Of a DNA stretch of 64,000 bases, positions 2,480-44,392 are shown piece by piece. Every line of letters starts with the position of its first letter. Position 1 is the first letter of the stretch. The translations under genes and the position numbers were made by a program. The notes under the pieces were generated by a model. That model made no database searches and had not been told where the DNA came from. It saw only the letters and a list, made by a program, of their open reading frames with translations. The DNA comes from Candidatus Levyibacteriota bacterium (GTDB taxonomy: Bacteria > Patescibacteriota > Microgenomatia > Levybacterales > UBA12049): positions 37,756 to 101,755 of the forward strand of contig JBPOIT010000011.1 of the NCBI GenBank assembly GCA_052034235.1. Direction: 5' to 3'.

Positions 2480-5400
2480 CTATTGTACCATACGACCAAA
2501 CTTGAACTCAAGTAGGAGTTTGGGGAAGAAATAAAGTACAGCTGGCAAGAGTGATAAAACAATAAGAACAAGACCGTTTAATTTAAAAAACATATCTGGT
2601 TGCACCATAAGTAACCAGCCGCTGGTCATGAGTATACTGATCGTAATGGTTAACCCGTAAGCGAGCAAATTACTCCTGAGTACATACCTTATAAGAAGTA
2701 TACTGCCTACAACGAGCATTATTTGCTGCAGGAGAGATTTTATAATATCTTCGTTTGATTTATTCTGCGGGAGCGCTAGAAGTATTATCAATAACGCAAC
2801 AACCCCACACGTTTTCTTCCAGGTTTTAAGATATCGCTTTATAAGCAAAAGCATTGCCATAAAGAAGAAAACTCCCCCTAGAATCAAAGGCAGCTCGCCT
2901 ATTGCTGAAAGCGCAGGGAAATATGTATCAAGTTTTGGGAATGTTTCAAAGGTTGTCATTGAGGAGAGCCATTCATTGGTACTTAAAACAGCAATCAGTA
3001 CGCTTGAGAGAGCAATCACAATAAACGGTGTTGCATAACTTGCAAGAATTGCATCTTTTACATAGGTAGTTCTCTTTTCTGCTTTATCAGGTAAGATATG
3101 CCCAAATTGTTCTTTCCAAAGCGTTAAAAATGTGGCACTGACAACCGATACCACAAAGAAGCTCACCACAAAAGCCAAAATGCTGATAAGAATTGATTGG
3201 ACAATATAGGTTTGCATTGGAATTGCTGTATTGTAGTTACTATAAAAATTGGAAAGGCTATTTAAGGTAATCAGTATGTTCACAATGGTAATTAACCCAG
3301 CGATTTTGTAAGACAAACGGAAATTAAGTTTTTTCTCGCGCAAGTACGAAAAGAAGCTTTTAAAACCAAACCATGCTATAACAAGACCAAAAATGCCAAT
3401 GATTCCACCAACAAAAAAATCAAAGTTACTCGTTTCACTTTGTTGACGAATCCAGGTTTCAGGCAATTTTAAATTGCTACTAAACCCTGAAACTTTATCG
3501 CCAACAACCACCACTTCAGTTTGAAATACTGCCTCCCCTATTGCGCTTTTCTTTTCTTCGTAAACGAAAACATGATCTGTTCTCTTTTCCTTTTTATCTT
3601 GCTTACTTTCTATTAACTGATAATTTTGCATGTTAAACCCTTTTTCCATTTTCAAATACTCATTAGCAAGTTTTTGTGCTTGGGTTTGAGACAAATTGGC
3701 GCCTGCAGCTTTTTCATCAAGCGAATAAATGACTTGTTCTACTTTTCCGTCTGGCAGCACATCGACGTCGTATGATTCCTTTTGCAGCGGTTTAAAGTAC
3801 GTTACAGTCCAATATCCAAGCGGCAGTTTTTCAGAATAAACAGATTGTAATTTTTTATAATCTGCCACTTCAAGAATATATTTTTCTTCAGATGAGATAT
3901 CGTTTGGGGTAAAAGTTATGACGCTTGAATAGCCATTGGTATCCACCTGGCGTTTGATGAGAGCTTGATCGGCAATTTTTTTGACCTCTTCCCGACCGAT
4001 TGTGGTTGGCAATTCCTCAGTGGGTGCTTGCGGAAAAAATGGTAATACGCTTACCAAACTAACCAGAGACAATCCGAAGATAAGCATTTTCCGTTTTCGC
4101 GTCAGAGGTTTATAAGCAGTATCAACAACTGCGACAACGTGTGTTTGTTTTTCAAGTTTTTCAGCTTTGAGATTTTCGTTCAGGTCTTCTTTTCGCTCGG
4201 GTGCAAATCCTTTTTTTTGTATTGCCAGTAGCAGTAACCCAACTGCCACAATGAATGGTAAAAGCGAGACAAGCGTACTTGAAACACTTGCATAGAAATT
4301 GCCTGATTGATAAAAAGAAATTGCTGTTTGAAGGGCATTAAACGTGTAATGAGCAGTAAATGAAGCTAAAAATCCGTAGCGGACAAATATCCACCCGAGA
4401 ACAACCCCGATTACGCTAATCTCAATTCCGCGCACAAACCACGGCGACTGCGGATAATTACTATGCAAAAATCCCCACACGATTGCGGTGATAATAATTG
4501 CAACCCATGTGCTTTTGAACATTTTTTTCAAAAACGGTATACCAAAAAGTCTAAAAATCCCCTCTTCTGATGCTGCTGCCAAAAAGCCGATAAAAAGCGG
4601 ATACACCCACGGAAGAAGTGTGCTGTAGATATCAGAATAATTGATCGCCGCTGGCGCCCAAAACCCGACAGATTTACCTAGGAAGTAATACAACAGTTCG
4701 TAGGTAAAAAAGATAATCCCGGCAAACGTCCCGACAAACAATGCCTTATTAACTGCCTTTGTTTGGAGTGCAGTTGTATAAAGTGATTCGAGTGAAAGCT
4801 TTTGAGGAAAAACCTGTCTGAACTTTGCTTCTCCTGCAGTTATGACAAACAGCACCGATGCGCCTTCAAAAAGTCCACCCAAGACGCTTACAAGGACAAT
4901 GCTTGCAATAAAAGCTTCCCAACTCACTGTCGTTGTATAGCCAGCAAGAGAAAGCGGAATTGAATTGAGTGCTGTCAAAAGTGCGATGACTGCGGCAGCG
5001 AGTGCTATGTATCGAAGTGAGTTGATGCGAAGATTATTGTGACGATATTCTTTAAAGTACGTGATAACGATTGCAAGTCCAAAGACAAGAAGCATGAGGA
5101 CTTCAGCGACAACTTGTGCTAAATCGTTATTGGAAGTTTCATTTTCATACGCCCGTTGCCAACTTTCTGGGATTTTAAGATATTCATAATACCCTCCAAT
5201 TTTATCACCAAAGATCTGTACTTCCATCCGATACGTTGCTTCATTTGCCTGAAATCCAATTTTCTCCCAGGTAAAGATATGATCTATGCGGGATTTTTGT
5301 TCACTACTTTCACTGTTGACGAGTTTCCACTTTGTTATATCTGTTTGTATCGTTTTTGTGATGAATGCTTCGGCAGTTTTTTGCGCAGCTTCTTTATCAA

Positions 5401-5836
5401 GCGATGCTCCCGATGCATTTTCAGAAATCTCATGATAATATGCGACAAATTTGCCGCTTGGCAGATACGAAACACTTATTTCTTCCTGTTCTAGTGGTTT
5501 AAAAAACCGAGTGGTGAAATGCCAGACATCGATGTCATTTTGTGCCAGTCGCGCAGTTTCAGTCACGCCGACTTCCCGCTCGAGATACGTTTTACTCGCA
5601 TCATCAATCGTAAAAACCGTCGCCTCTTTAAAAGTATTACTAGCAATCCCCTGTTCCAACGCAAACTGCTTCGCCTTCTCAGCTGCCTGTTCCCGTGTGA
5701 TATCAAAAGATATATTATGTTCAGGAAATGCTAACGTTCTGAAGTTGATGAAGAAAAATAAACTAACTAAGGCAGCAAAAAAAAGGACACCTAAAAATAA
5801 TTTTTCCTTTGTTGAATAAAAGTTTTTTATATTCAC
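2480..5836 (-). CDS. Giant polytopic membrane protein with an internal tandem duplication. Each half has two PepSY-like extracytoplasmic modules and a multi-TM domain. The first TM domain is a CPBP/CAAX-type intramembrane metalloprotease (Abi family)
   Basis: 1118 aa. CPBP motifs in the first membrane block: ASEEGIFR (EExxxR), VWGFLH (FxxxH) and FTAHYTFN (HxxxN). PepSY-like repeats occur at ITREQAAEKAKQFALEQGI and LDKEAAQKTAEAFITK in the first half, and at IGREEVKKIADQAL and LSQTQAQKLANEYLK in the second half. The second membrane block lacks the catalytic motifs. Confidence 0.8.
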   Translation of the reverse strand: MNIKNFYSTKEKLFLGVLFFAALVSLFFFINFRTLAFPEHNISFDITREQAAEKAKQFALEQGIASNTFKEATVFTIDDASKTYLEREVGVTETARLAQNDIDVWHFTTRFFKPLEQEEISVSYLPSGKFVAYYHEISENASGASLDKEAAQKTAEAFITKTIQTDITKWKLVNSESSEQKSRIDHIFTWEKIGFQANEATYRMEVQIFGDKIGGYYEYLKIPESWQRAYENETSNNDLAQVVAEVLMLLVFGLAIVITYFKEYRHNNLRINSLRYIALAAAVIALLTALNSIPLSLAGYTTTVSWEAFIASIVLVSVLGGLFEGASVLFVITAGEAKFRQVFPQKLSLESLYTTALQTKAVNKALFVGTFAGIIFFTYELLYYFLGKSVGFWAPAAINYSDIYSTLLPWVYPLFIGFLAAASEEGIFRLFGIPFLKKMFKSTWVAIIITAIVWGFLHSNYPQSPWFVRGIEISVIGVVLGWIFVRYGFLASFTAHYTFNALQTAISFYQSGNFYASVSSTLVSLLPFIVAVGLLLLAIQKKGFAPERKEDLNENLKAEKLEKQTHVVAVVDTAYKPLTRKRKMLIFGLSLVSLVSVLPFFPQAPTEELPTTIGREEVKKIADQALIKRQVDTNGYSSVITFTPNDISSEEKYILEVADYKKLQSVYSEKLPLGYWTVTYFKPLQKESYDVDVLPDGKVEQVIYSLDEKAAGANLSQTQAQKLANEYLKMEKGFNMQNYQLIESKQDKKEKRTDHVFVYEEKKSAIGEAVFQTEVVVVGDKVSGFSSNLKLPETWIRQQSETSNFDFFVGGIIGIFGLVIAWFGFKSFFSYLREKKLNFRLSYKIAGLITIVNILITLNSLSNFYSNYNTAIPMQTYIVQSILISILAFVVSFFVVSVVSATFLTLWKEQFGHILPDKAEKRTTYVKDAILASYATPFIVIALSSVLIAVLSTNEWLSSMTTFETFPKLDTYFPALSAIGELPLILGGVFFFMAMLLLIKRYLKTWKKTCGVVALLIILLALPQNKSNEDIIKSLLQQIMLVVGSILLIRYVLRSNLLAYGLTITISILMTSGWLLMVQPDMFFKLNGLVLIVLSLLPAVLYFFPKLLLEFKFGRMVQ

Positions 5837-7295: not shown

Positions 7296-8651
7296 TCACA
7301 CTTGTGCGGCTTGATCTTTTTTTAAATTCCTTACCCTGGCTTGCTGAATTAACAGAACTCCCTCGTGAGGCACATCCGGCCTTGTTCCCTCAAATCCTTT
7401 TCCTTCCTGAAGTAATGGGAAATGTTTATTTTTCGCTAAGAATTCGAGAAGGCTGCCCCATGGGGCTTCTTTAACAGCATCTTTGCCAGTTTGACTTGTA
7501 TAGGCAATCTCTTCAGGATGAGCATGATGTTCTTTCTGCCCACCAACTTCATCCAGCGTTAACCAACTAAGTAATTTACCAGGTAATCCTGAATGAACAG
7601 TGTCTGTTGTCACTGAACCATCTTCTTCATTCAAATGGATATCATATTTTGTTCTCAGTGCAGCCTGAACTAATCTATTTTGATCAAAAACGCCTGCATG
7701 CCCCATAGAGTTTGTAACATTGCCCCCCACAAGCTCCAGACCTACACGAGCAGCATTTATTGCTGCACCAGTTATTACTGCTTCAGCGACACTCTTCCTA
7801 TCAAACTTTCTTCTCGTAAAAAGCACTGCTGCCGCAGGAATAGCAAAACCTGCAATAACATCACGAGCATGTGTACTTGTATTCTTACCATCAGGATGTT
7901 GCAAATCATCTGGTTTTCTTTCCGGATGATCAGTAAATAGTGCAGCTGCACGTTGATATAAACCGATATTTTTTAAAGCGATTCTCTTTACTCCATTTTC
8001 TCCTCCAGTCAGTACCGGAGAATGCGGATCTGTGAGAAGTATTTGTGCCATATCTTCAGTTGTCCATTCTCCTTTATGATGTTTATAATCGGGGTAAACA
8101 TAACGCGGGCTATGAGGATTTAATATTTCTCTGACTTCATCCGCAGTATAATCAGTTTTTTCCTGGTACACATCTCCTAATTTTTCTTTAATATGGTCTT
8201 TAGCTAAATTTCCTATTGTAACAACTTCATCAAGAGAAAATTCTGGTACAAAGGGGTCAAGATGAGGAAAAGCCTCGGGAACTTCTACTGTTCCGACATT
8301 TTCCGGACGCTGCGCCCACTCTATTGCTCCAGCCATTTGGAAAAAAGGAAAGAGTGAAGCGTCAGTCATTTCATGGTGGATTCTGTGAACAGATGCCCAT
8401 ATCGTTGGATCGCCAACTCCAAGTGAGCTTTGCTCTGCTTTAATAAGTGCCGAGACAACTGGATGAGGCTCCAAACTTCGGTGGGTTAAGTTTCGATGAT
8501 GCTCGATTGTAATTCCTGCAACGCCAATAAACCCTGCTGCCGCTCCTCCACCAATAATTTTCGCTGCTCTGCGCAAACCTTTATGCTTTCCATCTTCTGT
8601 GGAAGCTATTCTCTGTTCTTTTGACATATGATCATTTATTATAATGTACAA
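7296..8651 (-). CDS. Acyl-CoA delta-9 desaturase-like di-iron His-box protein, atypical (long insertions, few TM segments)
   Basis: His boxes HRNLTHRS (HxxxxH) and HRIHH (HxxHH) are 38 aa apart, as in stearoyl-CoA desaturases. NSMGHAGVFD resembles the conserved NSAAHxxG, followed by EHHAHP resembling HNNHHAFP. Alternative start at M9 (8627). GC looks higher than in neighbouring genes. Confidence 0.65.
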   Translation of the reverse strand: MYIIINDHMSKEQRIASTEDGKHKGLRRAAKIIGGGAAAGFIGVAGITIEHHRNLTHRSLEPHPVVSALIKAEQSSLGVGDPTIWASVHRIHHEMTDASLFPFFQMAGAIEWAQRPENVGTVEVPEAFPHLDPFVPEFSLDEVVTIGNLAKDHIKEKLGDVYQEKTDYTADEVREILNPHSPRYVYPDYKHHKGEWTTEDMAQILLTDPHSPVLTGGENGVKRIALKNIGLYQRAAALFTDHPERKPDDLQHPDGKNTSTHARDVIAGFAIPAAAVLFTRRKFDRKSVAEAVITGAAINAARVGLELVGGNVTNSMGHAGVFDQNRLVQAALRTKYDIHLNEEDGSVTTDTVHSGLPGKLLSWLTLDEVGGQKEHHAHPEEIAYTSQTGKDAVKEAPWGSLLEFLAKNKHFPLLQEGKGFEGTRPDVPHEGVLLIQQARVRNLKKDQAAQV

Positions 8652-8715
8652 AAGAGCTTAGTCAAGCTGATAAATAAAGTATAACCACACATGCTTTGAA
8701 ATTTCTAGAGCTTTA

Positions 8716-8758
8716 GTAATTCTAAAACCTTATAAACAACAACTGCTGGCCAGAATAT
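8716..8758. repeat. 43-bp perfect direct repeat, copy 1 (gtaattctaaaaccttataaacaacaactgctggccagaatat). A remnant copy of the 3' end of the small membrane-protein gene
   Basis: Identical to 10079-10121. The flanking ~15 bp are also similar (gaaattt...). On the minus strand it encodes ...IFWPAVVVYKVLELLKL* but is preceded by an in-frame stop, so it is non-coding here. Confidence 0.85.
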
Positions 8759-9092
8759 AATCGACACGCTCAGATTGGCAGATACTCAGGCTTTACCAAA
8801 TTTCCTAACATTTGTAACAGTTAAAGAAGCGCGTTTGAAGATTCAAGCATAACTGAAGAATCACCTACTCGATACGAAGCTTCACCATTCTTTCCGGTAA
8901 ATTCTCTTACCATCTCTACGAGTGTGCCTATTTCTACTTGCTTTTCTTGCATAAACTGCGATTATAACTGCATACTCATCCATAATCAAACAAAGCGCCG
9001 CTTATATTATGCTTTCGACGATTTTCTTATGACAATAGAATCAAAAAGTAGAGGTAATTGTTAATTTATATCTTATAGTATATAATCGTGAG

Positions 9093-11792: not shown

Positions 11793-14033
11793 ATGAAATT
11801 AACGATACGAGCAAAATTACTGATAGGATTTACCTTGTTACTCCTTTTGTCTTCACTAGGGCTCGCCTTTTCATTCACAGCAACAGGTGACTACATTTCC
11901 TCACTCACCAAAGATAATCAGGCACAGGAAGCGAAAAAAGGTTCAGTACAAATTCAAAATTTCTTTACCAATATAAATGATATAACTTTTGGACTCGCTC
12001 GAACCTACAAAGATACTTTTTTAAATGCAAGTCAGTCGGCAGCATTTACAGATTTTAGTGCAATCAATCGCTATAGTATTCAAAATAATGAGCAGATCAA
12101 TAAAATAACCTACCTCTTACCTTCAGGACGACAACTCTATCGATTTGATATCCATGGACAAGTACCCCAGGATAGTTTGAATTATGAAGTTTATTCAGAC
12201 GCTTTCACTAATGCAGCACATGGAAAAACATCCATTTCAAAAGTGTACTTTATAGATCAATCATTAGGTCCACATTTAGATGTTTTTTCTCCTATTTATG
12301 ACAACAACCACACGGTGCGAAGTATCGTTAAGATGCAAATCAAACTTGAATCTCTGCGCAAGAAACTCGAAACGATTAAGTATGGTGAAAGGGGGTTTTT
12401 ATATGTTGTCGATGAAGAAGGTCGCCTCATAACACACCCATCCCAGCAATATGTTATACAGCGGCCAAACTTAACATCCCGAAAAATCGTTGCTATGACC
12501 GCACAGAACAAAAAGATAACTAAAAACGATGAAACTTATGTGAACGAAAAAAATATACCTGTTATTGCCAAGGCTGAGAAAATTCCAGGTATCAACTGGA
12601 TTGCAATTATTGAAGAACCACAAGTCGATGCAAATAGCTATCTCATTTTTCTTCGTAATCTTTTTATCAGTACCTTCATTGGAGCCTCACTCTTATTACT
12701 GCTTGTTTCACTCTATCTCAGCGAAAATTTCACACGGCCGATTAGACGATTACAGAAAGACGCTGAGAAAATTGAGAAAAAGCAAATGGACACTATGGAA
12801 ATAATAAAAACCGGAGATGAGATTGAAGCGTTATCGCGATCGTTTAGTTCAATGGTGAACCAATTATTATTACGCGAAAGCTCGATAAAAAATGAAAACC
12901 AAAAAATGATGACCTTACAACAATCCCTTTCAGATGCTGTGATTGGCCTTGATTCAGAATATCAAATTATCGCATTCAATAGAGCAACTGAAAAAATTAC
13001 AGGTTTTAAAGCGGAAGAAGTAAAGGGGAAACATATAAACGAAGTCTTATTGCTTTACTCTGATCACGAGAGAATTATATTTGATACATATAGCGATCAA
13101 AATCCATCAATGAAAGAAAAACTCCGCGAAAAAGGCTTAAGAATGACAAACACACGGGGAGAAAAACTTACTATTTCAATTACTACCTCCCCTATTCTTT
13201 TTGACGATAAAAAGACAGGTTATATCATAGCATTCCATGATATGACGAAAGAGCATGAACTGGAAGAAATGAAACTGGACTTTGTGTCTATGGCTGCACA
13301 TGAACTTCGTACACCTTTAACAGCAATTAGAGGCTATGCATCAATTCTTCAGCAACAGAAACAAGATCTTCTGGATGTTGTAGGAAAAGAAATGCTTCGA
13401 AAACTTATTATCACCGGTGAAAATCTAAGTAACCTGATAGATAATTTGTTAAGCGTTTCACGTATTGAACGCAATATGTTTAGTCTTGATAAAAAACCGG
13501 TAAAGGTAGATATGCTCATTACCAATGTCGTTGATACGCTAAAAAATCAAACGACAATGAAAAAACAACAATTGAACATTAAAGTCCCAGGCGATCTCCC
13601 CGAAATTATGGCTGATCCGTTTCGTATCACGCAGGTAATTTTAAACCTTGCCGCAAATGCGAGTAATTATACTTTTGAGAATGGAAGTATTACTATAGAA
13701 GCGCAAAAAAAGGACGGCTTTATTCAAGTATCTGTAACAGATTCGGGGCAAGGCATTCCAAAAGAAGCATTATCCAAGCTTTTTACTAAGTTCTTTAGAG
13801 TATCGGGCACACTTGAGCAAGGATCCAAAGGGACAGGATTAGGGCTTTATATTTCCAAATCGATAATAGAAATGCATAACGGTAAAATTTGGGTAGAAAG
13901 CGAGGTCGGCAAAGGATCAATATTTACTTTCGAACTTCCAACAGCTACTGATGAAGACATCAAACAATACAACGAACGAAACACAGCTCTCAAACTCTCA
14001 CAAGCAAACACACCTACCATACACCATAGCTAA
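11793..14033 (+). CDS. Sensor histidine kinase (Cache-like extracellular domain, HAMP, PAS, HisKA, HATPase_c)
   Basis: 746 aa. TM, a large periplasmic domain, a second TM, then a HAMP-like region. PAS at SLSDAVIGLDSEYQIIAFNRATEKITG. H-box at FVSMAAHELRTPLTAIRGY. G-boxes at GTGLGLYISKSIIEMHNGKIWVES. It lies 15 nt downstream of the SBP gene. Confidence 0.9.
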   Translation: MKLTIRAKLLIGFTLLLLLSSLGLAFSFTATGDYISSLTKDNQAQEAKKGSVQIQNFFTNINDITFGLARTYKDTFLNASQSAAFTDFSAINRYSIQNNEQINKITYLLPSGRQLYRFDIHGQVPQDSLNYEVYSDAFTNAAHGKTSISKVYFIDQSLGPHLDVFSPIYDNNHTVRSIVKMQIKLESLRKKLETIKYGERGFLYVVDEEGRLITHPSQQYVIQRPNLTSRKIVAMTAQNKKITKNDETYVNEKNIPVIAKAEKIPGINWIAIIEEPQVDANSYLIFLRNLFISTFIGASLLLLLVSLYLSENFTRPIRRLQKDAEKIEKKQMDTMEIIKTGDEIEALSRSFSSMVNQLLLRESSIKNENQKMMTLQQSLSDAVIGLDSEYQIIAFNRATEKITGFKAEEVKGKHINEVLLLYSDHERIIFDTYSDQNPSMKEKLREKGLRMTNTRGEKLTISITTSPILFDDKKTGYIIAFHDMTKEHELEEMKLDFVSMAAHELRTPLTAIRGYASILQQQKQDLLDVVGKEMLRKLIITGENLSNLIDNLLSVSRIERNMFSLDKKPVKVDMLITNVVDTLKNQTTMKKQQLNIKVPGDLPEIMADPFRITQVILNLAANASNYTFENGSITIEAQKKDGFIQVSVTDSGQGIPKEALSKLFTKFFRVSGTLEQGSKGTGLGLYISKSIIEMHNGKIWVESEVGKGSIFTFELPTATDEDIKQYNERNTALKLSQANTPTIHHS

Positions 14034-16432: not shown

Positions 16433-17761
16433 ATGTTTACCTCAAACAGCAAATACATATCGCTAGTCGTTTTTATTACCCTTTTATTTACAATTGGCAA
16501 TCTTTTTCTGCTATATAAAAACGTGCAAACGATAAGAGCAAACGCAGCCTCAGTCAACCATACCCACACCGTCAAACAAGAACTAGCAGGAATCTTGCAA
16601 GCCCTGACCGATGCTGAAACTGGTCAGCGCGGTTATTTAATAACAAATGATGAGAGGTATCTAAAGCCTTATATCGATGCTAAACCTACTATGTTTAGGT
16701 ATTTAAACGATGTTGAAAATTTAACCCACGATAACCCAATACAACAAGCCAACGTCGACGAATTAAGAGCATTAGTGCAACAACGTATGAACTGGCTTGA
16801 AGAAGGTGTTAAAATGCGAACTGAACAAAATTACGAATCTGCACAGACTTTTATAACCACTGGTGTTGGTATAACGACAATGATTGAGGTGCGAGAGAAA
16901 GTATCAGCCATGCTGATCGAAGAAGATCGACTCCTGAAAGTGCGTGAAAATCAAACGAATAGCAGTTTTAGAACCCTCAATATTACGAGCGGCATTGGAG
17001 GTTTATTTAATATTGGATTAATACTTTTGTCTTTCTATTTAATAAAAGAAGAACTACAACGGCGTAATCAACTTGAGAAGAACAAAGACGATTTTATCAG
17101 TATGGCGAGTCATGAATTAAAAACGCCAATTACAAGTCTAAATATTTACACACAAATCGCCGTAAAAAATCTTGAGAGAAAAAAGTATACCGAGACAAAA
17201 AAGCTGCTTGAGAAAATAACCAACCAAACAGCTCGACTATCCTCACTCGTTACGGATTTACTGGATATCTCACGTGTTCAGACAGGAAAATTAAAAATTG
17301 AACACTCCCCTTTTGATATCGATGCACTCATTCATGAAACGGTCGAAAGTATCCAGCAAACGACAGCAAAGCATAAAATTACCGTAAAATCTACTATAAA
17401 ACGTCAGGTAAACGGAGATAGATATCGCATTTATCAAGTGTTAACAAACTTGCTAACGAACGCTGTCAAATATTCTCCCAAAGGAAAGAAAATTACCGTA
17501 CATGCGAAATCAACACGTAAAGAAGTAGTTATTGCTATAAAAGATCAAGGTATCGGTATTGAAAAGAAACATCAAAAAAAGATATTTCAAAAACTTTATC
17601 AAGTAACTGACTCTCATGGGAATACCTATCCTGGATTTGGGATCGGACTTTATATCAGTTCACAAATAATCAGGCAGCACCGTGGAAAAATTTGGGTAGA
17701 AAGTAAAAAAGAGAAAGGTTCAACATTCTCTTTTAGCATTCCGTTTAATGATAATGCATGA
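16433..17761 (+). CDS. Sensor histidine kinase with a CHASE3 extracellular domain
   Basis: 442 aa. TM, a CHASE3-like region (TDAETGQRGYLITNDERYLKPY), a second TM, an H-box at FISMASHELKTPITSLNIY and HATPase motifs at GFGIGLYISSQIIRQHRGKIWVES. Confidence 0.9.
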   Translation: MFTSNSKYISLVVFITLLFTIGNLFLLYKNVQTIRANAASVNHTHTVKQELAGILQALTDAETGQRGYLITNDERYLKPYIDAKPTMFRYLNDVENLTHDNPIQQANVDELRALVQQRMNWLEEGVKMRTEQNYESAQTFITTGVGITTMIEVREKVSAMLIEEDRLLKVRENQTNSSFRTLNITSGIGGLFNIGLILLSFYLIKEELQRRNQLEKNKDDFISMASHELKTPITSLNIYTQIAVKNLERKKYTETKKLLEKITNQTARLSSLVTDLLDISRVQTGKLKIEHSPFDIDALIHETVESIQQTTAKHKITVKSTIKRQVNGDRYRIYQVLTNLLTNAVKYSPKGKKITVHAKSTRKEVVIAIKDQGIGIEKKHQKKIFQKLYQVTDSHGNTYPGFGIGLYISSQIIRQHRGKIWVESKKEKGSTFSFSIPFNDNA

Positions 17762-18325: not shown

Positions 18326-19210
18326 TTACCCCTTTTTCTTCATATCTCTACATCCGTGAGGACAAAGAATAACTCCATCTTTAGGTCGACAATCCATACA
18401 CATAATTAAATGTCTGTGGCATTTATCATTACTACAATTTATATACTCCTCACTGATCTTTCCACATTGAGCGCATCTTCCAACAATTTCGTGTTTACTA
18501 CTTTCCGTTTCAAAGCCCATGAGTATGCGATTATCAAAAACATATAATTTACCTTTAAAATCTTCGTTGGGATATTTTGCCATATAGGTCACAATCCCAT
18601 CCTGAAGTTGATAGATATCTTTAAAACCATGTTTGAGTAGTAAACCTGAAGCACGCTCACAACGAATCCCGCCTGTACACACTGTGACAATAGGCCTGTC
18701 ATTATATTTTTTAAGCTTTGGAAGTACCTTTGGTAAATCACGAAATGTTTCAATTGGCGGTAAAATAGAGCCTTCAAATCGACCACTATTATGCTCATAA
18801 TCATTTCGCATATCCATTATGTAAAACTTTTTTTTCTGTTTTATCCACTCGTGCAAATCATCTGCTGTAATATATTTTCCGGTAAGTTGCGAGGGTTCAA
18901 CATCCCACTCTTCAGTCTTATCACTTACCAAATCCTGCCTGACTCTTACTTGGAGTCGTGGAAGCGCATTTCCTGTTCCTTTACTGCGTTTAAACACAAT
19001 GTCAGAAAACCGCTTGTCTTGTTGCATTGCTTCAACATACTTTTCAGTAGATTCAATCGTCCCCTCCACCGTACCATTAATGCCGTTATGGGCAACAATA
19101 ATTCTTCCTTTAAGCCCAAGATCTAGACAAAGTTGTCTCTGACTATCACACACTTTTTGCGGCTCATCAAGAGAAACATATTTATAATAAAGGAGCACCT
19201 GATATATCAT
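18326..19210 (-). CDS. trhO: tRNA uridine(34) hydroxylase TrhO (rhodanese-domain protein, UPF0176/YceA family)
   Basis: MIYQVLLYYKYVSLDEPQ... N-terminus typical of YceA. Rhodanese active site CTGGIRCE. C-terminal Cys-rich tail (CAQCGK...CPHGC). The ORF track extends to 19303; I prefer the start at M32 (19210). Confidence 0.85.
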   Translation of the reverse strand: MIYQVLLYYKYVSLDEPQKVCDSQRQLCLDLGLKGRIIVAHNGINGTVEGTIESTEKYVEAMQQDKRFSDIVFKRSKGTGNALPRLQVRVRQDLVSDKTEEWDVEPSQLTGKYITADDLHEWIKQKKKFYIMDMRNDYEHNSGRFEGSILPPIETFRDLPKVLPKLKKYNDRPIVTVCTGGIRCERASGLLLKHGFKDIYQLQDGIVTYMAKYPNEDFKGKLYVFDNRILMGFETESSKHEIVGRCAQCGKISEEYINCSNDKCHRHLIMCMDCRPKDGVILCPHGCRDMKKKG

Positions 19211-19302
19211 ATTTTGCTTAGATGAATTATAACAATATTTTTGAAGAAGTAAAATGTTGTGTGGAATAAGTATAATTGCTATGCTGTATATAAAGCTCAA
19301 CA

Positions 19303-20235
19303 ATGAAACCTATACTCATTTTCTTTATAGCCACAACCATGCCTCTTGTCATCTTTATTGCAACATTACTCTATGGAGATGTGAGCAATGAACAACTGAA
19401 AAAAGCTCTTAAGGAATCAGGAGTTTATGAACAAATGAGCACATATCTCGTTCGTGGAGATATTGAACTCGATGTGCCCTTCCTTAATGTCGTTAAAGAC
19501 AGGTTCACCGATGAATATTTATATACCAAAACAGAAACGGCATTAGATGTTTCCACAGCCTGGATATCCGGAAAATCACAAACGAGACCCGTCATTTCAT
19601 TTCCGGAACTTAAAGAAGATTTGAATGAGCGTGACCCTGAACTTCTTGCATCATTACAAAAAATTCCTCAGAAAGAAGATTTAGACAAAGCCGGTATAGA
19701 ACCAGAGCAACAGGAAGCATATCTCCAACAAGTAAAGCAAATAAGTGAATTCACAAAAAATGACTTTTCAATAAGACTTGATGACCATTTACAGGGTTTC
19801 AAATTTGCATATGATGGATTAAAAATAGCCTTACCGATACTTGTGCTCCTCATGTTTGGAAGTTTATTTATGGTTTGGAAACTGGCTGACGGATTGCCGG
19901 CAAAATTTAAATGGCTAGGAATTACATTTATTGTTTGTGCTGTCACTGGGTTTAGCGTTATGCTTTCTCATTCGATGATTACCTACGGTATAACAAAAGT
20001 AAGTATGCTTAATGATGCTGAGGTTGTGAAGATGCTTACACCAATTCTGCTTTCTATACTTAACCACTATATGAAACTTTACGCATCGTATCAGGAGCTC
20101 GTAGCTGCTTTCTCACTTATAGTTGCTGTCTTATGCTTTATATTGATGATTGTTACGAGGAAACAAGCGGCCCTAAGTGTGAAACCCCTCAAAGTTCAGC
20201 GCTCCTACTGGGAGAAATCTAATAAGAAGAAGTAA
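19303..20235 (+). CDS. Hypothetical polytopic membrane protein
   Basis: 310 aa. N-terminal TM, a soluble acidic middle region and three C-terminal TM segments. No motif recognised. Confidence 0.55.
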   Translation: MKPILIFFIATTMPLVIFIATLLYGDVSNEQLKKALKESGVYEQMSTYLVRGDIELDVPFLNVVKDRFTDEYLYTKTETALDVSTAWISGKSQTRPVISFPELKEDLNERDPELLASLQKIPQKEDLDKAGIEPEQQEAYLQQVKQISEFTKNDFSIRLDDHLQGFKFAYDGLKIALPILVLLMFGSLFMVWKLADGLPAKFKWLGITFIVCAVTGFSVMLSHSMITYGITKVSMLNDAEVVKMLTPILLSILNHYMKLYASYQELVAAFSLIVAVLCFILMIVTRKQAALSVKPLKVQRSYWEKSNKKK

Positions 20236-23513: not shown

Positions 23514-25004
23514 TTACTTTTTTTTAGATTTATTTTTCGTTTTCTTTTTAAGTTTAAGAGACGGATTAAATATCAAGGTAAACGTTGTTCCTGCACCTTC
23601 TTTACTTATTACTTCTATTGATCCTTTAAATTCTTTTTCTACAATATCTTTACAAAGCGCGAGTCCTATACCCGTTCCTTTTTCAAAACTTTTCGTGGTA
23701 AAAAGAGGATCATAAATTTTAGGAATAATACTTGCAGGAATACCAGAACCCCAATCCTGTATTGAGATAATCACAGATCCTTTACTTTTGTTCATTGTGA
23801 TTTTAATTTTATTATTTTCATGATCTATTTTATCGTAGGAATCTATACCATTTGAAATAATATTTGTGACAAGCTGATTGAACTTTAAAGGATTTCCAAA
23901 GAGTTTCACCTCACTTTGAGACTCATATATGATTTTTATATCCTCATGTGATGCTTTATACGTCAACATTTGAATCACTTGTTTTATTTCATCATTCAGT
24001 GAAAATTCCTGACTGATATCTTGGGTTTGGATTTGTTTCCTGGCTGCTCTTAAATAGCTTTCAATTCTTTCAGTTCCTATTTGTGCGCGATTCAAAGACG
24101 AATAAAGTTTTTCCTGAATTTGTATATGCTCGCTGTTCCTTCGTGCTTGTTCTAAATTTAAGGAGATAACATTTAATGGAGCCACCAATTCATGAAATAA
24201 ACCTGAAGATAATCTACCAAATTCTGCAAAGCGATAAAGCTGCATCAGTTTTTCAACCTGAACTTTTTTCAATTCCTGGGTCCTCTCTGCTACCATGACT
24301 TCTAACTGATCACGCTGTTTTTTCAAAGCAAGTTCTGACGACCGTGCACGTCTTAAAGCCTTTTCCATTTCACGATTATACAGCCATGAAATGAGTGCGA
24401 TTATAAAAAGAATGACTGTATACACAGTAACATCCGCTATAGTCGCTGGTAATTGTGTCCATGAAGTATTAAACGTAATAATGTGGTTCTCATAAGCAAA
24501 TAACAAGACTAATAATGTTAAGGATATAAGAATCGTAGCAAAAAGTGCAAATGATGAACTAATGAGAATTCCACCCATAATAATTACTAGGACATATGTA
24601 AGTAACGCAGAGGGAATATCTATTCCCCAGGTATAACTGGTATAAGTCGCTCCTAGGAAAAAAAGCGTTAGTAGAAAATAAGCAGCATATCGGTATTTGC
24701 CTTTATGCGAGAAATAATAATTAAGAAGTAATACAAAAAAAATACAGGAAGGAATTATTGATGATTCACCAACGAAAGCACTCCCTGTATTAGAATCTAC
24801 AACATCCGTAATAAGAGCAGATATAACTGCAACAAAGGTCAAACCTAATGCTGAGGTAAGAAGGATATTCAAAATGAATTTTCTTCTTGCCACATCCTTA
24901 TTATTTGATTTCGACTCAATAAATACTTTATATAATTTCTTTAATTTATAAAGTACGACGTGAGCTATATCAGATGATGTAAATGTATTCTTTATTATTG
25001 CCAT
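23514..25004 (-). CDS. Sensor histidine kinase, intramembrane-sensing type (6 TM, no large extracytoplasmic domain)
   Basis: 496 aa. N-terminal polytopic membrane region. H-box at LSSGLFHELVAPLNVISLNLE. HATPase motifs at QDWGSGIP and GTGIGLALCKDIVEK. Confidence 0.9.
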   Translation of the reverse strand: MAIIKNTFTSSDIAHVVLYKLKKLYKVFIESKSNNKDVARRKFILNILLTSALGLTFVAVISALITDVVDSNTGSAFVGESSIIPSCIFFVLLLNYYFSHKGKYRYAAYFLLTLFFLGATYTSYTWGIDIPSALLTYVLVIIMGGILISSSFALFATILISLTLLVLLFAYENHIITFNTSWTQLPATIADVTVYTVILFIIALISWLYNREMEKALRRARSSELALKKQRDQLEVMVAERTQELKKVQVEKLMQLYRFAEFGRLSSGLFHELVAPLNVISLNLEQARRNSEHIQIQEKLYSSLNRAQIGTERIESYLRAARKQIQTQDISQEFSLNDEIKQVIQMLTYKASHEDIKIIYESQSEVKLFGNPLKFNQLVTNIISNGIDSYDKIDHENNKIKITMNKSKGSVIISIQDWGSGIPASIIPKIYDPLFTTKSFEKGTGIGLALCKDIVEKEFKGSIEVISKEGAGTTFTLIFNPSLKLKKKTKNKSKKK

Positions 25005-26120: not shown

Positions 26121-27155
26121 TTATAGTCCTGAAAGGTCACGAATTTCTTTTTCGCTAAAAGGAGTTATCTTACTTGTAAGTACCGTATTTAATTTTGTGA
26201 TCACAGCATTTGCTATAAATCCATTCACAACCGTGCCTGTATGAACACCATCTTCAAGATAAAAATTATTAGGATTATTGCTTAACATTACTCGCTCAAT
26301 CTGAACTCCGTCAACCGTAAACTGACCACTATCATCCTTTCTGAATAACTCTTTATAGACAGCATTTATATCCACCGTCATCAGATTTTCTTCCTGAGCA
26401 AACTTGTCAATTTCTGCATTCGTATCATTTATAACTTCTGTTACAAAAATTCGCTGTTGTGGCAACGGAAAAGCAACCTTCACTCCTAGATGATTGCCCC
26501 AATCAGGAATTTTGATAAGTACAATTCTGACATCCCCTGCATCTTTGAGCGTGTATACTATTGTTTTAATATCTGCAAGGATATGGTTCTCAATGCTTTT
26601 TTTTGCTGAGTTAGTAAGGTTACCGCTATAAATAGCTTCGTAATGTTCATGTGGCATATAAGGCGAAAAATCAAGCGCCCCTATAAAAACAACGACGACA
26701 TTAACTTTACCTTCTTTTATTTGTTGTGCAGCTCCTATATGCTGCCCGCTTTCTATCACACTATTCGAAGTCGCACCTGTTCTTGCCCAGTTATATTCAT
26801 AACCGTCTCGTCTAGGCTCTTCACGCCTCCCCCACTCACCGACGTTTACATTTCTATATTTGGATAACAGTTCAACCCAGTTATATGTCGTAGAAGCATA
26901 ATTACTCCCCCGCCAGTCATCAGCACGGTATTCGTCCGATTGACTGTCTCCAAGTACCGCCATGCCCTTCATAGTGAGCGGTGCGGGGGTCGCTGACGGA
27001 ATGAGGTATTGAAGTCTATCACTCACCAAACCAGGATTCTGAAATGTGAAAATCGTAGCAGCTAATGAACCTAAGCTAATCACTGCCATCAAAAAAATGC
27101 CGAGAATTTTTATGACTCTTATAACGTGATTAATGTTTTTATTATTTTTCTTCAC
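26121..27155 (-). CDS. Membrane-anchored SGNH/GDSL-family hydrolase (esterase/lipase-like)
   Basis: N-terminal TM, then VLGDSQSD (GDSxxD block I) and a C-terminal DGVHTG (DxxH block V). Confidence 0.7.
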   Translation of the reverse strand: MKKNNKNINHVIRVIKILGIFLMAVISLGSLAATIFTFQNPGLVSDRLQYLIPSATPAPLTMKGMAVLGDSQSDEYRADDWRGSNYASTTYNWVELLSKYRNVNVGEWGRREEPRRDGYEYNWARTGATSNSVIESGQHIGAAQQIKEGKVNVVVVFIGALDFSPYMPHEHYEAIYSGNLTNSAKKSIENHILADIKTIVYTLKDAGDVRIVLIKIPDWGNHLGVKVAFPLPQQRIFVTEVINDTNAEIDKFAQEENLMTVDINAVYKELFRKDDSGQFTVDGVQIERVMLSNNPNNFYLEDGVHTGTVVNGFIANAVITKLNTVLTSKITPFSEKEIRDLSGL

Positions 27156-27584: not shown

Positions 27585-28223
27585 CTATTTCTTCTTTCGT
27601 GAACTCAGAAAGAGAGCTCCACCGGATAGCGCAAGTGCAACAACACTGAGTGCTGTTGGCAGACTTGCATCTGTCGAGGCTGGTTTTTCCGTTTCGGAAT
27701 GACTGCCTTCAGCTAAAGCGAGATCATTAACGATCTTCGTTTCAGAATATGGCTTTACATCGTGATCGTCATGATCCTGGCTCGGTGCCTGATCCCAAGC
27801 AACCACTTCTCCATCCGAATAGGTTTGATATGCCTTCCATTGCAATGTTGTTTCTTCAGCAGGTACTTGTGCACTGAATAGAAATTCATCACGCTGACCA
27901 GCAGGAATAGATCCGCCCGTCCAGATAATCTCTGTAACAACTGCTGCTTCTCCTTCTCCAGATTTTTTGACTTCAATCGTCCATCCCGGTTTTACATTGG
28001 GAGTCACATACTGCAGCCCGCTAGGAATAACAAGACGCAACGCAACTGTAGGTACATCTTTTTCATTAGGAACCCCTGTCGTAAATGTTTGGAATGCAGC
28101 TGAACCAACTTGATTTGGTTTTACTGTGACATGCGCTGAAACAAAGGCCGCACTCATTAAAAAGACGCCAGTCAATGCAACACTTACTACTGTTTTTGTT
28201 ATATTCTTTTTTTGATTTTTCAT
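27585..28223 (-). CDS. YcnI-like DUF1775 copper-binding protein with a C-terminal TM anchor
   Basis: Signal peptide, then AHVTVKPNQVGSAAFQTFTTGVPNE...VIPSGLQYVTPNVKPGW, the DUF1775 pattern with His as the first mature residue. C-terminal hydrophobic anchor plus KKK. Confidence 0.7.
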   Translation of the reverse strand: MKNQKKNITKTVVSVALTGVFLMSAAFVSAHVTVKPNQVGSAAFQTFTTGVPNEKDVPTVALRLVIPSGLQYVTPNVKPGWTIEVKKSGEGEAAVVTEIIWTGGSIPAGQRDEFLFSAQVPAEETTLQWKAYQTYSDGEVVAWDQAPSQDHDDHDVKPYSETKIVNDLALAEGSHSETEKPASTDASLPTALSVVALALSGGALFLSSRKKK

Positions 28224-30840: not shown

Positions 30841-31992
30841 ATGGTGAAAAGAGTCATATATCTCATCCTTGTCCTTGTATTCATACTGCTGCTGATAATT
30901 GTACTGATACCGTGGTTGAACAGGACAAAAAATGCCGAGGCGTTGCCAGCACCAACCGGATCAATAATTACAAAAGACAAAATCTCTGCAGATCTACCGA
31001 GAGTTTCAGTCGTTGCATCAGGACTTGAAGTGCCGTGGGCTTTGGCCTTTCTACCGGATAATAGTTTACTTATAACCGAGCGCCCGGGAAAAGTTCGCTT
31101 GATAACTAGTGACGGTAAATTGCTCGCTGATCCCTTATTAAGCTTACCAGTCGTTCAAAAGATACAAGGTGAAGGTGGACTCCATGGAATTGTCCCTCAT
31201 CCGAATTTCACTGAAAACAACTATATATACCTCTATTATACGTATGAAAACACGGGGACAGGTTCACTTAATAGGGTCTCACGTTTTACTTTTGAAAAGA
31301 ATAAACTCGTTGATGAAACCACTATCGTAGACAAAATACCAGGAGCACTTTTTCATGATGGTGGAAGAATAAAATTTGGGCCTGATGATTTCCTCTATAT
31401 TACAACCGGTGATGCTCAAGAGCCATCATTTGCTCAAGACAAAAATTCACTTGCCGGAAAAATTCTTCGTGTCACTGACGACGGCCGCCCTGCACCTGAT
31501 AATCCTTTTAAGACTATGATTTATTCATACGGACACCGCAATCCCCAAGGGATCGCATGGGATGACACAAACAAACTTTGGCAGACAGAGCACGGAAGAT
31601 CAAATCCTTCCGGATACGATGAAGTCAACCTCATTCTCGCTGGCAAAAATTATGGCTGGCCTGAAATTGAAGGCGATGAAACAAAAACCGATATGGAAAC
31701 ACCGAAAAGCCAATCAGGACAGTCATTAGCATGGGCTCCTGGAGGCGCGACGTTTATAAATAATTCATTCTTTTTTACTGGACTTCGGGGACAAACACTC
31801 TATGAAGCAATAATTCAGAAAGATAACGTTGTCTCTTTTAAAGAGCATTTCGCTGGAGAATATGGTCGATTAAGAGACGTCATAACAGGTCCAGACGGTA
31901 TGTTGTATATGACGACAAGTAACAGAGACGGCAGGGGTATACCGGCAGGAAACGACGACAAAATTCTGAGAATTAACCCAGATAAATTATAG
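30841..31992 (+). CDS. PQQ-dependent sugar dehydrogenase (soluble glucose/sorbosone dehydrogenase family), membrane-anchored
   Basis: N-terminal TM. GLEVPWALAFLPDNSLLITERPGKV, GHRNPQGIAWD and the beta-propeller pattern typical of the YliI/Asd family. Confidence 0.85.
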   Translation: MVKRVIYLILVLVFILLLIIVLIPWLNRTKNAEALPAPTGSIITKDKISADLPRVSVVASGLEVPWALAFLPDNSLLITERPGKVRLITSDGKLLADPLLSLPVVQKIQGEGGLHGIVPHPNFTENNYIYLYYTYENTGTGSLNRVSRFTFEKNKLVDETTIVDKIPGALFHDGGRIKFGPDDFLYITTGDAQEPSFAQDKNSLAGKILRVTDDGRPAPDNPFKTMIYSYGHRNPQGIAWDDTNKLWQTEHGRSNPSGYDEVNLILAGKNYGWPEIEGDETKTDMETPKSQSGQSLAWAPGGATFINNSFFFTGLRGQTLYEAIIQKDNVVSFKEHFAGEYGRLRDVITGPDGMLYMTTSNRDGRGIPAGNDDKILRINPDKL

Positions 31993-35050: not shown

Positions 35051-35920
35051 TTATCCGAGAACAATTATCACCACACCAATAACCATAATTGCAGCTCCAA
35101 AAAAACGCTCTTTAATATTATCCTCTTTAAATAATAATTTACCCCAGAGGATACCAAACAAGGCGCTCGTACGCTTTACTGCTGTAACATGTGGAACCAT
35201 AGTCAGTGAATAAGCTAACGAATAAGAAAGCATCGAAAGCCCTGTAAAGATACCAATTGGCACCAAAATGTGTATTTTTTTAAACACCGGCTGAAAAGAA
35301 ACTCTTTTGAAAAGGATAACGCATGTTAACAGAATGCTCGTCATACATGCTGAAGCGAATGCATAGATAAAAGAGTTTGCATTTACTATTGCCATTCTGT
35401 CAAAATTTGACGAAATACTCCAAGTAAAGGCAATAATCAGCATCATCCTTGACCCTTTATCTTTGACTAAACTCAATAATGGCTGCCATACACCATCTAC
35501 TCGTTTACTTAGGTTAAGAATATAAGACCCAACCACGGTAATAACAATCCCAAAGACACCGAAAACACTTGGGAACTCTCCAAGAATTATCGGTGAAGTA
35601 ATCAGTGCAAATATAGGTACAAAAGAAAGTATGGGCAAGGTGAGTGAAATTGGGCTTTCCTTCATCGCCTTAAAAAAGAGAATAGATGTGTATGAATAGA
35701 GAATCGAAGAAATAACAAGTGCTGTTAAAAATGTTGTATTAACAGGCTGCATGGAATGTGTGAGCATACATAAGGGAAAAAGGATCAGTAAAGAAAAAAT
35801 ATATTGAGACCATGCCATAAGTAAAGGATCAATTTTTTGAGTACCCCTTTTGCCAAAGATTGCAATAATCGACTGACAAAAAGCAGATAAAAGTGAAAAG
35901 ACAAACCACTGCATAGGCAT
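35051..35920 (-). CDS. EamA/DMT-superfamily transporter
   Basis: 10 TM, with two EamA-like halves. The start is trimmed to MPMQWFV (about 35920) because the upstream MgtC-like gene ends at 35949. Confidence 0.7.
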   Translation of the reverse strand: MPMQWFVFSLLSAFCQSIIAIFGKRGTQKIDPLLMAWSQYIFSLLILFPLCMLTHSMQPVNTTFLTALVISSILYSYTSILFFKAMKESPISLTLPILSFVPIFALITSPIILGEFPSVFGVFGIVITVVGSYILNLSKRVDGVWQPLLSLVKDKGSRMMLIIAFTWSISSNFDRMAIVNANSFIYAFASACMTSILLTCVILFKRVSFQPVFKKIHILVPIGIFTGLSMLSYSLAYSLTMVPHVTAVKRTSALFGILWGKLLFKEDNIKERFFGAAIMVIGVVIIVLG

Positions 35921-35948
35921 CATTATAGCAGTATAAATAGAAAAAAAT

Positions 35949-43356: not shown

Positions 43357-44385
43357 GTGAATCTCGTTATTATGAAAGGGTCTATGAAAATCACACTGAC
43401 CTCACGTGCACTTTTTGGAATTCTTTTCGTCCTCGCAGCACTCGTGGGAACCCCAATTGCAATTTTCCAACTTCAACAACAACAAGAAATCAGACAACGT
43501 GCTGATACTGGCATTGCTTGGTCCACAAGCCAATCAGCATCATCAAGTTGTCCCACAACCGGATCAGGAGCAATCATTACCGCCACTTTTAACAACACAG
43601 AACCTGACAGGTCAAACTATGCAATGAATGTTGTTGCGAAAGATAGACAAACTGGTAAGTCAGTTAATTTGGGTAGTATAAGGGGCGGCCAAAGTAAGTC
43701 AGGAGTTATTCAGACTGGAAGGACATCACTTAGTGCTGGCACTGTTGACTTTGCACTGACCTGGACTGATGGTCATAGCGGTATAGATAGTAGATCTGCA
43801 GGATATCAAACAATCAGCAATTGTAATACACCAACTCCAACACCACCACAAAGTGAACCTGTTTGTCCAGCTGGCACTGATCAGGTTGACGTCATAACTG
43901 GAGGTCCACTCCTTGCTAATGGGACTCCGTCGAGTAAAACACATACATTAACGCTTGATAACGCAGCCAAACTGATCTTTAGCGGATTCTTAAAAGAAGG
44001 TCATCCCGAGGATTGTCCAAATGGTCCAAGCTGCAATCAAGGCCAACTCTATGAGGAAATTACGCTTTCTGTTAATGGCACCAAGATCGGCGAAAGCACA
44101 GACACAGGCGGACCAGTTGACGCATGGGTTCCTATCGGTCCATGGGAAACATCATCAACAATAAATAAAGGCTCTGTTTCAGTCGTTATTAATCACCGTA
44201 AAAGAAGTACAAAAGGTCCAGAATCAGTAGATTACAAATTGGCAGTATGTGCACAAAAACCACAATCAACGCCAGTTCCTTCGGCTTCGCCTACTCCAAC
44301 GAAGCCAAATGATCCTACGCCAACCGTTTGCCCAACGCTGGCACCAGTAAAGAATGTCCGGATTGATTGTCCTAATTGTCCTTGA
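43357..44385 (+). CDS. Secreted/anchored Cys-containing surface protein, paralogue A
   Basis: N-terminal TM. The domain at aa ~40-150 is homologous to the N-terminal domain of the next ORF (WSTSQSASSSCP...FALTWTDGHSG versus [13 protein letters not shown]...[11 protein letters not shown]). Pro/Thr-rich C-terminus ending in a CPNCP motif. Confidence 0.6.
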   Translation: MNLVIMKGSMKITLTSRALFGILFVLAALVGTPIAIFQLQQQQEIRQRADTGIAWSTSQSASSSCPTTGSGAIITATFNNTEPDRSNYAMNVVAKDRQTGKSVNLGSIRGGQSKSGVIQTGRTSLSAGTVDFALTWTDGHSGIDSRSAGYQTISNCNTPTPTPPQSEPVCPAGTDQVDVITGGPLLANGTPSSKTHTLTLDNAAKLIFSGFLKEGHPEDCPNGPSCNQGQLYEEITLSVNGTKIGESTDTGGPVDAWVPIGPWETSSTINKGSVSVVINHRKRSTKGPESVDYKLAVCAQKPQSTPVPSASPTPTKPNDPTPTVCPTLAPVKNVRIDCPNCP

Positions 44386-44392
44386 ATAATGC

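Follow-up and report, generated by a model that had tools for sequence, protein, structure and literature searches.

A very divergent stearoyl-CoA desaturase-like protein with an inserted subdomain and weak membrane helices in a Levybacteria-like bacterium

The superfamily of membrane-bound His-box desaturases and hydroxylases is classically defined by three motifs occurring in order, HX(3-4)H, HX(2-3)HH and (H/Q)X(2-3)HH. In the structures of the stearoyl-CoA desaturase SCD1 (4ymk/4zyo), an additional NSAAH block contributes an Asn and a His to the metal site. AlkB has different box patterns, six transmembrane (TM) helices and hydroxylase chemistry. Here we describe a gene from a 64-kb stretch of contig JBPOIT010000011.1 (hereafter the window, meaning the whole of the DNA analysed), whose product, judged by its sequence, is a real but very divergent relative of the SCD-type iron-containing fatty-acid desaturases. 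Three His boxes in the classical order, combined with a supported homology, place the predicted protein within the superfamily, and its three-dimensional fold is of the SCD1 type. The fold, the motifs and a Gln variant of the third box are already known; what is new is a clade restricted to the candidate phyla radiation (CPR), a 110-residue subdomain beside the metal site, the loss of the first TM helix (TM1) and a family-wide weakness of the remaining stalk helices.

The features on which the analysis draws are given below. Residue numbers follow a 451-residue numbering of the open reading frame (ORF); those of the real protein are lower by 8.

7296..8627, minus strand: coding sequence of the SCD-like, putatively di-iron protein (443 residues plus stop; start at ATG 8627)
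8638..8665, minus strand: sigma-70-type promoter-like site TTGACT-16-TATAAT (11 of 12 consensus positions; a consensus match only)
8502..8567, minus strand: Ala/Gly-rich hydrophobic helix, residues 29-50, AAKIIGGGAAAGFIGVAGITIE (maximum Kyte-Doolittle hydropathy, KD19, of 1.58), at the position of SCD1 TM2
8481..8498, minus strand: His box 1, HRNLTH, residues 52-57 (H52/H57), aligned to SCD1 HRLWSH
8373..8387, minus strand: His box 2, HRIHH, residues 89-93 (H89/H92/H93), followed by the invariant D97; aligned to SCD1 HRAHH
8031..8360, minus strand: family-specific inserted alpha/beta subdomain of 110 residues (98-207)
8016..8030, minus strand: DPHSP motif with D208, P209 and H210 invariant, the block that comes after box 2 in delta-9-type desaturases
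7722..7868, minus strand: helical hairpin, residues 262-310, at the position of SCD1 TM3-TM4 (model helices 262-280 and 285-316)
7698..7712, minus strand: NSMGH block with N314 and H318 invariant (NSMGHAG, 314-320), the counterpart of the SCD1 NSAAH block
7524..7538, minus strand: third box, QKEHH, with Q372, H375 and H376 invariant and a Gln in place of the first His
7299..7523, minus strand: C-terminal 75 residues with the motifs APWGS, GxGF and RPDxPH and a terminal helix

A first-pass annotation of the window had proposed a divergent delta-9 desaturase-like protein, an identity that is borne out at the level of the family rather than of the single sequence. The window protein itself scores 16.0 bits against the Pfam model PF00487 (FA_desaturase; gathering threshold 29.7) over residues 37-94 only, and 27.1 bits (E 2e-6, cut-off 400) against the NCBIfam model NF049918 (DesA_fam) over residues 41-98 only; on these alignments it is no equivalog of DesA. 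A single-sequence phmmer search of the PDB reached human SCD1 (4zyo) at an E-value of 0.8. All of these single-sequence matches are sub-threshold and confined to the region of boxes 1 and 2. A total of 44 close homologues of ~440 aa were identified at 37-100% identity, almost all of them without a name, and an alignment of 31 homologues was used to build a profile for wider searches. This profile matched SCD1 (4zyo) at E 3.7e-5 and, among 1.84 billion representative sequences, collected 66 family clusters at E ≤ 1e-30 followed by a tail of 275-350-aa proteins, which are matched on profile positions ~10-87 and ~197-377, the two stretches flanking the insertion. Nine of ten tail proteins scanned with Pfam match PF00487 at E ≤ 0.001, and six of the ten reach the gathering score (up to 85 bits). 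Overall, the family profile reaches PF00487 proteins at E 1e-15 to 1e-7. Within the family itself, a PF00487 match at E ≤ 0.01 was obtained for only 6 of the 31 members, one member (P0035) has a precomputed PF00487 hit, and another (P0041) is named "Fatty acid desaturase domain-containing protein" in UniRef. The Foldseek comparison is in qualitative agreement, with SCD1 entries at a probability of 0.85 and a TM-score of 0.46 on the target. An hhalign comparison of the family with an approximate SCD1 sequence aligned 62 columns only (E 4e-5); SCD1 residue numbers are not used here, as this sequence is off by 4 from the published numbering.

A functional protein is supported by the conservation of the putative metal site. 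The boxes HRNLTH and HRIHH and the NSxxH-G block (NSMGHAG), all noted in the first-pass annotation, recur throughout the homologues and are no chance matches. In box 1, T56 and H57 are invariant in the 31-sequence alignment and H52 and R53 are conserved in ≥90% of the sequences; box 2 is invariant both within the family and in the alignment with canonical relatives, and no gap is needed to align the stretch spanning these two boxes with human and mouse SCD1. The invariant positions in this part and the adjoining DPHSP motif are T56, H57, W85, H89, H92, H93, D97, D208, P209 and H210; those in the C-terminal half include N314, G317, H318, Q372, H375, H376 and P379. In canonical PF00487 proteins, the second profile-matched stretch starts just upstream of DPHSP. 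The pattern NxxxHxG is present in 85 of 89 full-length members and QxxHH in 89 of 89. The third box had previously been read as a degenerate EHHAHP (374-379), which is the wrong word for it, since H378 is not conserved, whereas QxxHH is invariant in the family and is, with a conserved Gln, the normal third box of active eukaryotic front-end desaturases (PMC4550275). The first residue of this box is Gln in 83 of 85 scored family members versus His in 8 of 11 scored canonical relatives. Overall, the boxes are retained in ~89 full-length members as well as in all 8 loci from Saccharibacteria, and the deviations observed in divergent members amount to classical HX4H and HX2-3HH variants only. Such conservation of the predicted ligands implies that selection maintains a working metal site in this family.

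The main departure from the canonical architecture is located between box 2 and the DPH motif. Canonical relatives run HHxxxD-xxx-DPHSP, while in the window protein 110 residues separate D97 from D208; from the "HH" of box 2 to "DPH", the median distance is 116 residues for family members versus 7 for canonical relatives. A large insertion had been recognized before, albeit with an estimated length of ~150 aa that has to be corrected to 110. It is laid out as a helix, a beta-hairpin, a long helix and two short helices, contains no conserved Cys or His, has no fold relative that we could find, and is absent from members outside the family clade. The C-terminal region, which includes model helices 397-407 and 430-450, is conserved in the family, with P379, Y384, G399, F420, R424, D426 and R439 invariant among the 31 homologues.

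The second departure concerns the membrane-spanning stalk. The helix 29-50 lies within a longer model helix (19-56), leads straight into His box 1 and aligns to the SCD1 segment ahead of HRLWSH. Together with segments 262-280 and 287-310 (KD19 maxima of 1.25 and 1.31, respectively) it makes up three moderately hydrophobic segments, all under the usual KD cut-off of 1.6; the previous description of little membrane character was thus fair, but not the count of one clear hydrophobic segment. An equivalent of TM1 is absent, the first helix being preceded by only 28, mostly charged, residues. By these sequence-scale estimates the window protein does not have the four TM helices of the SCD1 class. 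The basic stretches in the N-terminal tail (KHKGLRRAAK) and in the TM3-TM4 turn (TRRKFDRKS) are strongly charged and therefore unfavourable for translocation. The same trend extends to the family, which has a median grand average of hydropathy (GRAVY) of -0.45 (88 members) versus -0.05 in canonical relatives; most members show 0-2 segments above KD 1.6, 22 of 88 have no KD19 segment ≥1.6, and in some members of the family KD rises to 1.9. On a Hessa-type scale (position-independent, with approximate values), the median insertion energies of the TM2-, TM3- and TM4-like helices are estimated at +4.3, +5.6 and +8.6 kcal/mol, as compared with +1.2 and +2.5 in canonical relatives, and in none of 81 members does a helix fall at ≤1 kcal/mol. 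These values suggest that membrane association has probably been kept but not the four-helix topology, with a monotopic or weakly anchored arrangement being the likeliest.

On balance, and by a modest preponderance only, we favour the view that the SCD-like protein is an acyl-chain desaturase of the SCD type, O2-dependent and with a di-iron centre, acting on scavenged acyl chains. The data establish the homology, the fold, the conservation of the ligands, the insertion, the low hydrophobicity and the vertical inheritance; from these we infer iron binding, O2 chemistry, an acyl substrate, desaturation rather than hydroxylation, the regiochemistry, the electron donor and the topology. Two irons would be held on the cytoplasmic side by eight His, one Asn and one Gln, the predicted ligands being H52, H57, H89, H92, H93, N314, H318, Q372, H375 and H376. 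As in SCD1 and the bacterial delta-9 desaturases, the reduced di-iron centre would activate O2 and remove two hydrogens from a bound acyl chain, with electrons delivered by a separately encoded donor of the ferredoxin or flavodoxin type; no redox domain is fused to the protein itself. The outcome would be a cis double bond placed in scavenged fatty-acyl chains and a membrane fluidity tuned without type II fatty-acid synthesis (FAS II). The 110-residue insertion would form an autonomous subdomain beside the metal site. Since TM1 is lost, and since the stalk helices that remain are weak, rich in Ala and Gly and bordered by positive charges, an anchoring in, or dipping into, the inner leaflet appears more likely than four membrane passes.

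The presence of a desaturase in such a genome had been considered unexpected. It is true that a Pfam annotation of 50 ORFs of the window (with a few ORFs of ~100-115 aa left outside the scan) detected no FAS II gene, but the surprise was overstated, as desaturases modify pre-formed chains. An inability to make membrane lipids has been described for CPR bacteria (bioRxiv 10.1101/465690 / PMC7242380). What a desaturase requires is a supply of ready-made chains, O2 and a reductant rather than FAS II; its presence therefore makes sense and fits lipid scavenging; the SCD-like protein probably remodels lipids taken from other cells.

Several observations weigh against this assignment. An anaerobic, fermentative lifestyle is assumed for many CPR bacteria, in which an O2-dependent enzyme would idle. 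The His-box superfamily also includes hydroxylases, ketolases, epoxidases and decarbonylases, and because it covers several reactions, the chemistry is not readable from the fold. The scores of the window protein against PF00487 and DesA_fam stay, as given above, below their respective thresholds. No gene for a ferredoxin, flavodoxin, cytochrome b5 or reductase is recurrently adjacent in the 20 loci that were compared. The topology argument draws on hydropathy scales only, one of them approximate. In roughly one in four of the aligned members, moreover, the N-terminus is longer and adds a further hydrophobic helix, so that the insertion into the membrane may be more conventional than proposed here.

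The best surviving alternative, which we rate as possible although clearly less probable than even, is that the same fold and di-iron centre carry out another reaction or act on another substrate. The protein would then be a hydroxylase, an epoxidase, a ketolase, or a desaturase of a non-fatty-acyl substrate (a polyprenyl/undecaprenyl carrier, a sphingoid or ether lipid, a carotenoid or an alkane), with the insertion providing a new substrate-binding surface. The position of the insertion, in a loop beside box 2, the lack of any fold relative for it, and a sequence too divergent for any curated desaturase model would all be in line with such a shift, as would the weak stalk helices, by which a membrane-embedded phospholipid may not be reached as usual; moreover, a Gln in box 3 sets apart, in eukaryotes, a clade with a distinct function (PMC4550275). 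On the other hand, the series HRxxxH...HRxHH...DPH...NSxxH is the signature of delta-9 "first" desaturases, and the gene has no neighbours for carotenoid, sphingolipid or polyprenyl pathways.

The next alternative is about localisation and overlaps with the preferred desaturase assignment. The protein may descend from a membrane desaturase but be soluble or purely peripheral, with the former TM helices buried as a core, perhaps against the insertion, and with water-soluble cytoplasmic acyl carriers (acyl-CoA or lysolipid) as its substrates. We consider this unlikely. The insertion energies, the family-wide GRAVY shift, the number of members without any KD19 segment ≥1.6, the missing TM1 and the basic N-tail and TM3-TM4 turn agree with it, and CoaBC is encoded in the window. 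However, the three hydrophobic segments keep their homologous positions and helix lengths like those of a stalk, KD is as high as 1.9 in some members, the longer forms add an N-terminal hydrophobic helix, and marginally hydrophobic helices can insert in multi-helix proteins. A bolder evolutionary version, improbable but a shade less so, would be that the lineage shed its transmembrane stalk in lipid-auxotrophic CPR and gained the 110-residue subdomain, turning the enzyme into a peripheral or soluble editor of scavenged acyl-CoA or lysolipids before their entry into the membrane. An inactive relic (a pseudo-enzyme keeping the fold for a structural or regulatory role), as might be suggested by the extreme divergence, the absence of a partner gene nearby and the His-to-Gln change in box 3, is hardly credible given that the ligand positions are invariant or conservatively varied in members down to ~30% identity and that a Gln in box 3 is compatible with activity in front-end desaturases (PMC4550275).

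The distribution of the family and the composition of the gene bear on its origin. The YchF protein encoded by the adjacent gene is 73-79% identical to proteins named Candidatus Levybacteria/Levyibacteriota and Patescibacteria, and the host is a Levybacteria-like CPR bacterium of the Microgenomates type. A profile scan of GTDB species representatives returned 17 loci, labelled Microgenomates, Patescibacteria or Saccharibacteria except for 5 labelled "uncultured Gammaproteobacteria" and 1 "Methylomirabilota". Two of the five metagenome-assembled genomes with the gammaproteobacterial label (MAGs; L008, OZ246394.1, 1.61 Mb, and L012, CAZDOJ010000001.1, 1.32 Mb; the others being L009-L011) have an assigned YchF 80-82% identical to that of the window, with Levybacteria as its nearest named relatives, and the same ychF/rpsF-ssb-rpsR synteny. 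For this reason the "Gammaproteobacteria" labels are probably wrong, and L008 and L012 are likely near-complete Microgenomates genomes; the 17.7-kb "Methylomirabilota" contig (L007) may be mis-binned. The SCD-like family has thus far been found only in the ultra-small CPR/Patescibacteria (Microgenomates and Saccharibacteria).

The least tenable of the alternatives is a recent transfer of a canonical desaturase gene from a non-CPR donor, a horizontal acquisition that the first-pass annotation had read from a GC content above that of the neighbours. The GC of the gene (0.424) does exceed the average of 49 other ORFs in the window (0.389±0.029), but only by a z of 1.2 (rank 8 of 50), and it stays under that of the adjacent ychF (0.436). 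The excess sits at codon position 1 (z 2.1), which is due to a protein rich in Gly, Ala, Asp, Glu and Val, whereas the GC at third codon positions (GC3) of 0.261 is below average (z -1.3) and codon usage, judged by its likelihood, is typical (z 0.11). The ychF/rpsF-ssb-rpsR neighbourhood is common to the window and to homologues of 77% and 46% identity, and the insertion occurs in no member outside the clade. The few homologues with non-CPR labels, which could speak for a foreign donor, include the contigs with the Levybacteria-like YchF described above. Transfer is therefore rejected on the grounds of the low GC3, the typical codon usage, the conserved synteny and the CPR-wide distribution, which together largely refute it and leave it a negligible probability; the family is vertically inherited.

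The ORF at 7296-8651, counted from a TTG as 451 codons, is real and uninterrupted, as first annotated; only its start requires correction, to ATG 8627. The TTG at 8651 falls within the promoter-like TTGACT-16-TATAAT site, and every database gene call is of 443 aa (a 100% identical protein, P0001, is called from ATG 8627 on 5 contigs), and for these reasons the TTG is probably unused. The promoter-like site ends 10 nt upstream of the ATG and no Shine-Dalgarno sequence was found ahead of it, which suggests a leaderless or nearly leaderless mRNA. The divergent intergenic region upstream of the gene is 465 nt long (8628-9092). It holds a 43-codon ORF, MQEKQVEIGTLVEMVREFTGKNGEASYRVGDSSVMLESSNALL, at 8821-8952 on the minus strand, preceded by a further promoter-like sequence, TTGATT-17-TATAAT (8989-8961). 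At the locus of the 77%-identical homologue (L029), the upstream gap is only ~110 nt and thus has no room for this ORF.

An all-vs-all ORF clustering of 20 loci revealed lineage-specific housekeeping synteny only. The genes ychF, rpsF-ssb-rpsR and ctpA recur in 6 of 20 loci and polA in three from Saccharibacteria, and no lipid gene is consistently adjacent across the 20. In L003 and L029 the SCD-like gene is directly upstream of rpsF-ssb-rpsR; in the window both ychF and a gene for an 1118-aa polytopic membrane protein (2480-5836, minus strand; internal CPBP/Rce1-like protease domain and a YcdB/YcdC (DUF4901) repeat) lie between it and ssb.

Elsewhere in the window, a patatin-like phospholipase (49575-50486, minus strand; 111 bits) and a weak GDSL-lipase-like protein (26121-27155, minus strand; 28.5 bits, below cut-off) are candidate lipid-scavenging enzymes that could supply the substrates of the SCD-like protein. 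A homologue of the O2-dependent tRNA hydroxylase TrhO (UPF0176/rhodanese type; 18326-19303, minus strand), a pyrroloquinoline quinone (PQQ)-type glucose/sorbosone dehydrogenase (30841-31992, plus strand), a flavin adenine dinucleotide (FAD)-linked oxidase (58138-59817, plus strand) and a DUF1775 protein (27585-28223, minus strand), presumably YcnI-like, suggest tentatively that the host lives exposed to oxygen, a point that matters for the ability of an O2-dependent desaturase to function there. Among the other features, two transketolase-family systems stand in tandem at 54431-58157 (plus strand): a full-length transketolase-like gene of 609 aa and, immediately behind it, a split pair that encodes the N- and C-terminal halves separately (287 and 330 aa, respectively). 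Two adjacent paralogous secreted or surface proteins without a Pfam hit (43357-45796, plus strand) share a signal-like helix at the N-terminus and repeats that contain Cys, to which the second one adds a long Pro/Thr-rich linker and a C-terminal hydrophobic anchor; their composition, and not transfer, accounts for the GC peak of the window (0.48 at 45-46 kb). The listed ORFs for an EamA transporter (35051-36043, minus strand) and an MgtC/DUF4010 protein (35949-37295, minus strand) overlap by 95 nt, the start of the downstream gene being probably over-extended. Three histidine kinases (11793-14033, 16433-17761 and 23514-25004) are many for a reduced genome, and no tRNA gene or Rfam family at gathering score was detected in the 64-kb window.

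Curated models miss the family, and nearly all of its members are labelled "hypothetical"; we found no published description of it in the literature on desaturases of CPR, Patescibacteria or Saccharibacteria or on monotopic His-box desaturases. For bacteria reported to be without lipid synthesis, a conserved, vertically inherited SCD-type enzyme is a candidate for the remodelling of scavenged lipids, and its O2 dependence would imply that the carriers meet oxygen. The inserted subdomain beside the di-iron site may define a new interface for a substrate or a redox partner, and, being compact and having weak membrane helices, a protein of the SCD fold such as this may lend itself better to expression and crystallisation than the classical membrane desaturases do. 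The interest would rise if the remodelling of host-derived lipids proved true, or if the protein were non-integral; a peripheral or soluble form would be the first non-integral member of the superfamily and would give direct molecular access to the way in which CPR bacteria adapt the lipids they borrow.

In comparison with known systems, AlkB (PDB 8sbb) is a far weaker match than SCD1. The eukaryotic front-end desaturases (FADS1/FADS2, delta-5/delta-6) share the QXXHH third box but are distinguished by an N-terminal cytochrome b5 with HPGG, an HXXXH box 1 and 3-4 clear TM helices (PMC4550275). Neither a cytochrome b5 domain nor an HPGG motif was found in the window protein, which thus does not belong to the front-end class, and these enzymes are not its closest match in fold or sequence. 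SCD1 itself (PDB 4ymk, 4zyo, 6wf2) has in common with it the gapless box 1-2 block, the DPH motif, the NSxxH block and a third box of the form xxHH with a Pro behind it, in spite of only ~16% identity over the superposed residues. The window protein departs from SCD1 in lacking TM1, in its Ala/Gly-rich, weakly hydrophobic stalk helices, in the 110-residue insertion between box 2 and DPH, in the Gln that opens box 3, in ~25 extra residues before this box and in a different C-terminal region.

The bacterial delta-9-type PF00487 desaturases, exemplified by P0143 (348 aa) and P0131 (279 aa), for which NF049918 is the closest NCBIfam model, follow the same motif order (HRxxxH, HRxHH, DPHSP, N-x-x-x-H, [H/Q]xxHH), have no fused cytochrome b5, and give E-values of 1e-9 to 1e-8 with the family profile. 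Unlike the window protein with its 16 bits, they score 63-85 bits on PF00487, and they differ further in having 7 rather than ~116 residues from HH to DPH, more hydrophobic helices and mostly His in box 3. A closer resemblance is seen in three short (~278 aa) proteins, P0117, P0122 and P0125, the best non-family hits of the profile (E 1e-15 to 1e-13). The gene for P0125 (277 aa; contigs L030 and L031) is directly followed by genes for an OmpR-type response regulator and a histidine kinase, which is not the case for the window gene; a GDSL lipase is also encoded nearby. We take this layout to resemble des-desKR of Bacillus subtilis. These short proteins are without the 110-residue insertion and the C-terminal extension, but they resemble the SCD-like family in the DPHSP motif, in a "DGT" segment ahead of box 3 and in their low hydrophobicity; P0117 and P0125 also have the Gln of box 3. 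By these sequence features they are probably its closest out-group.

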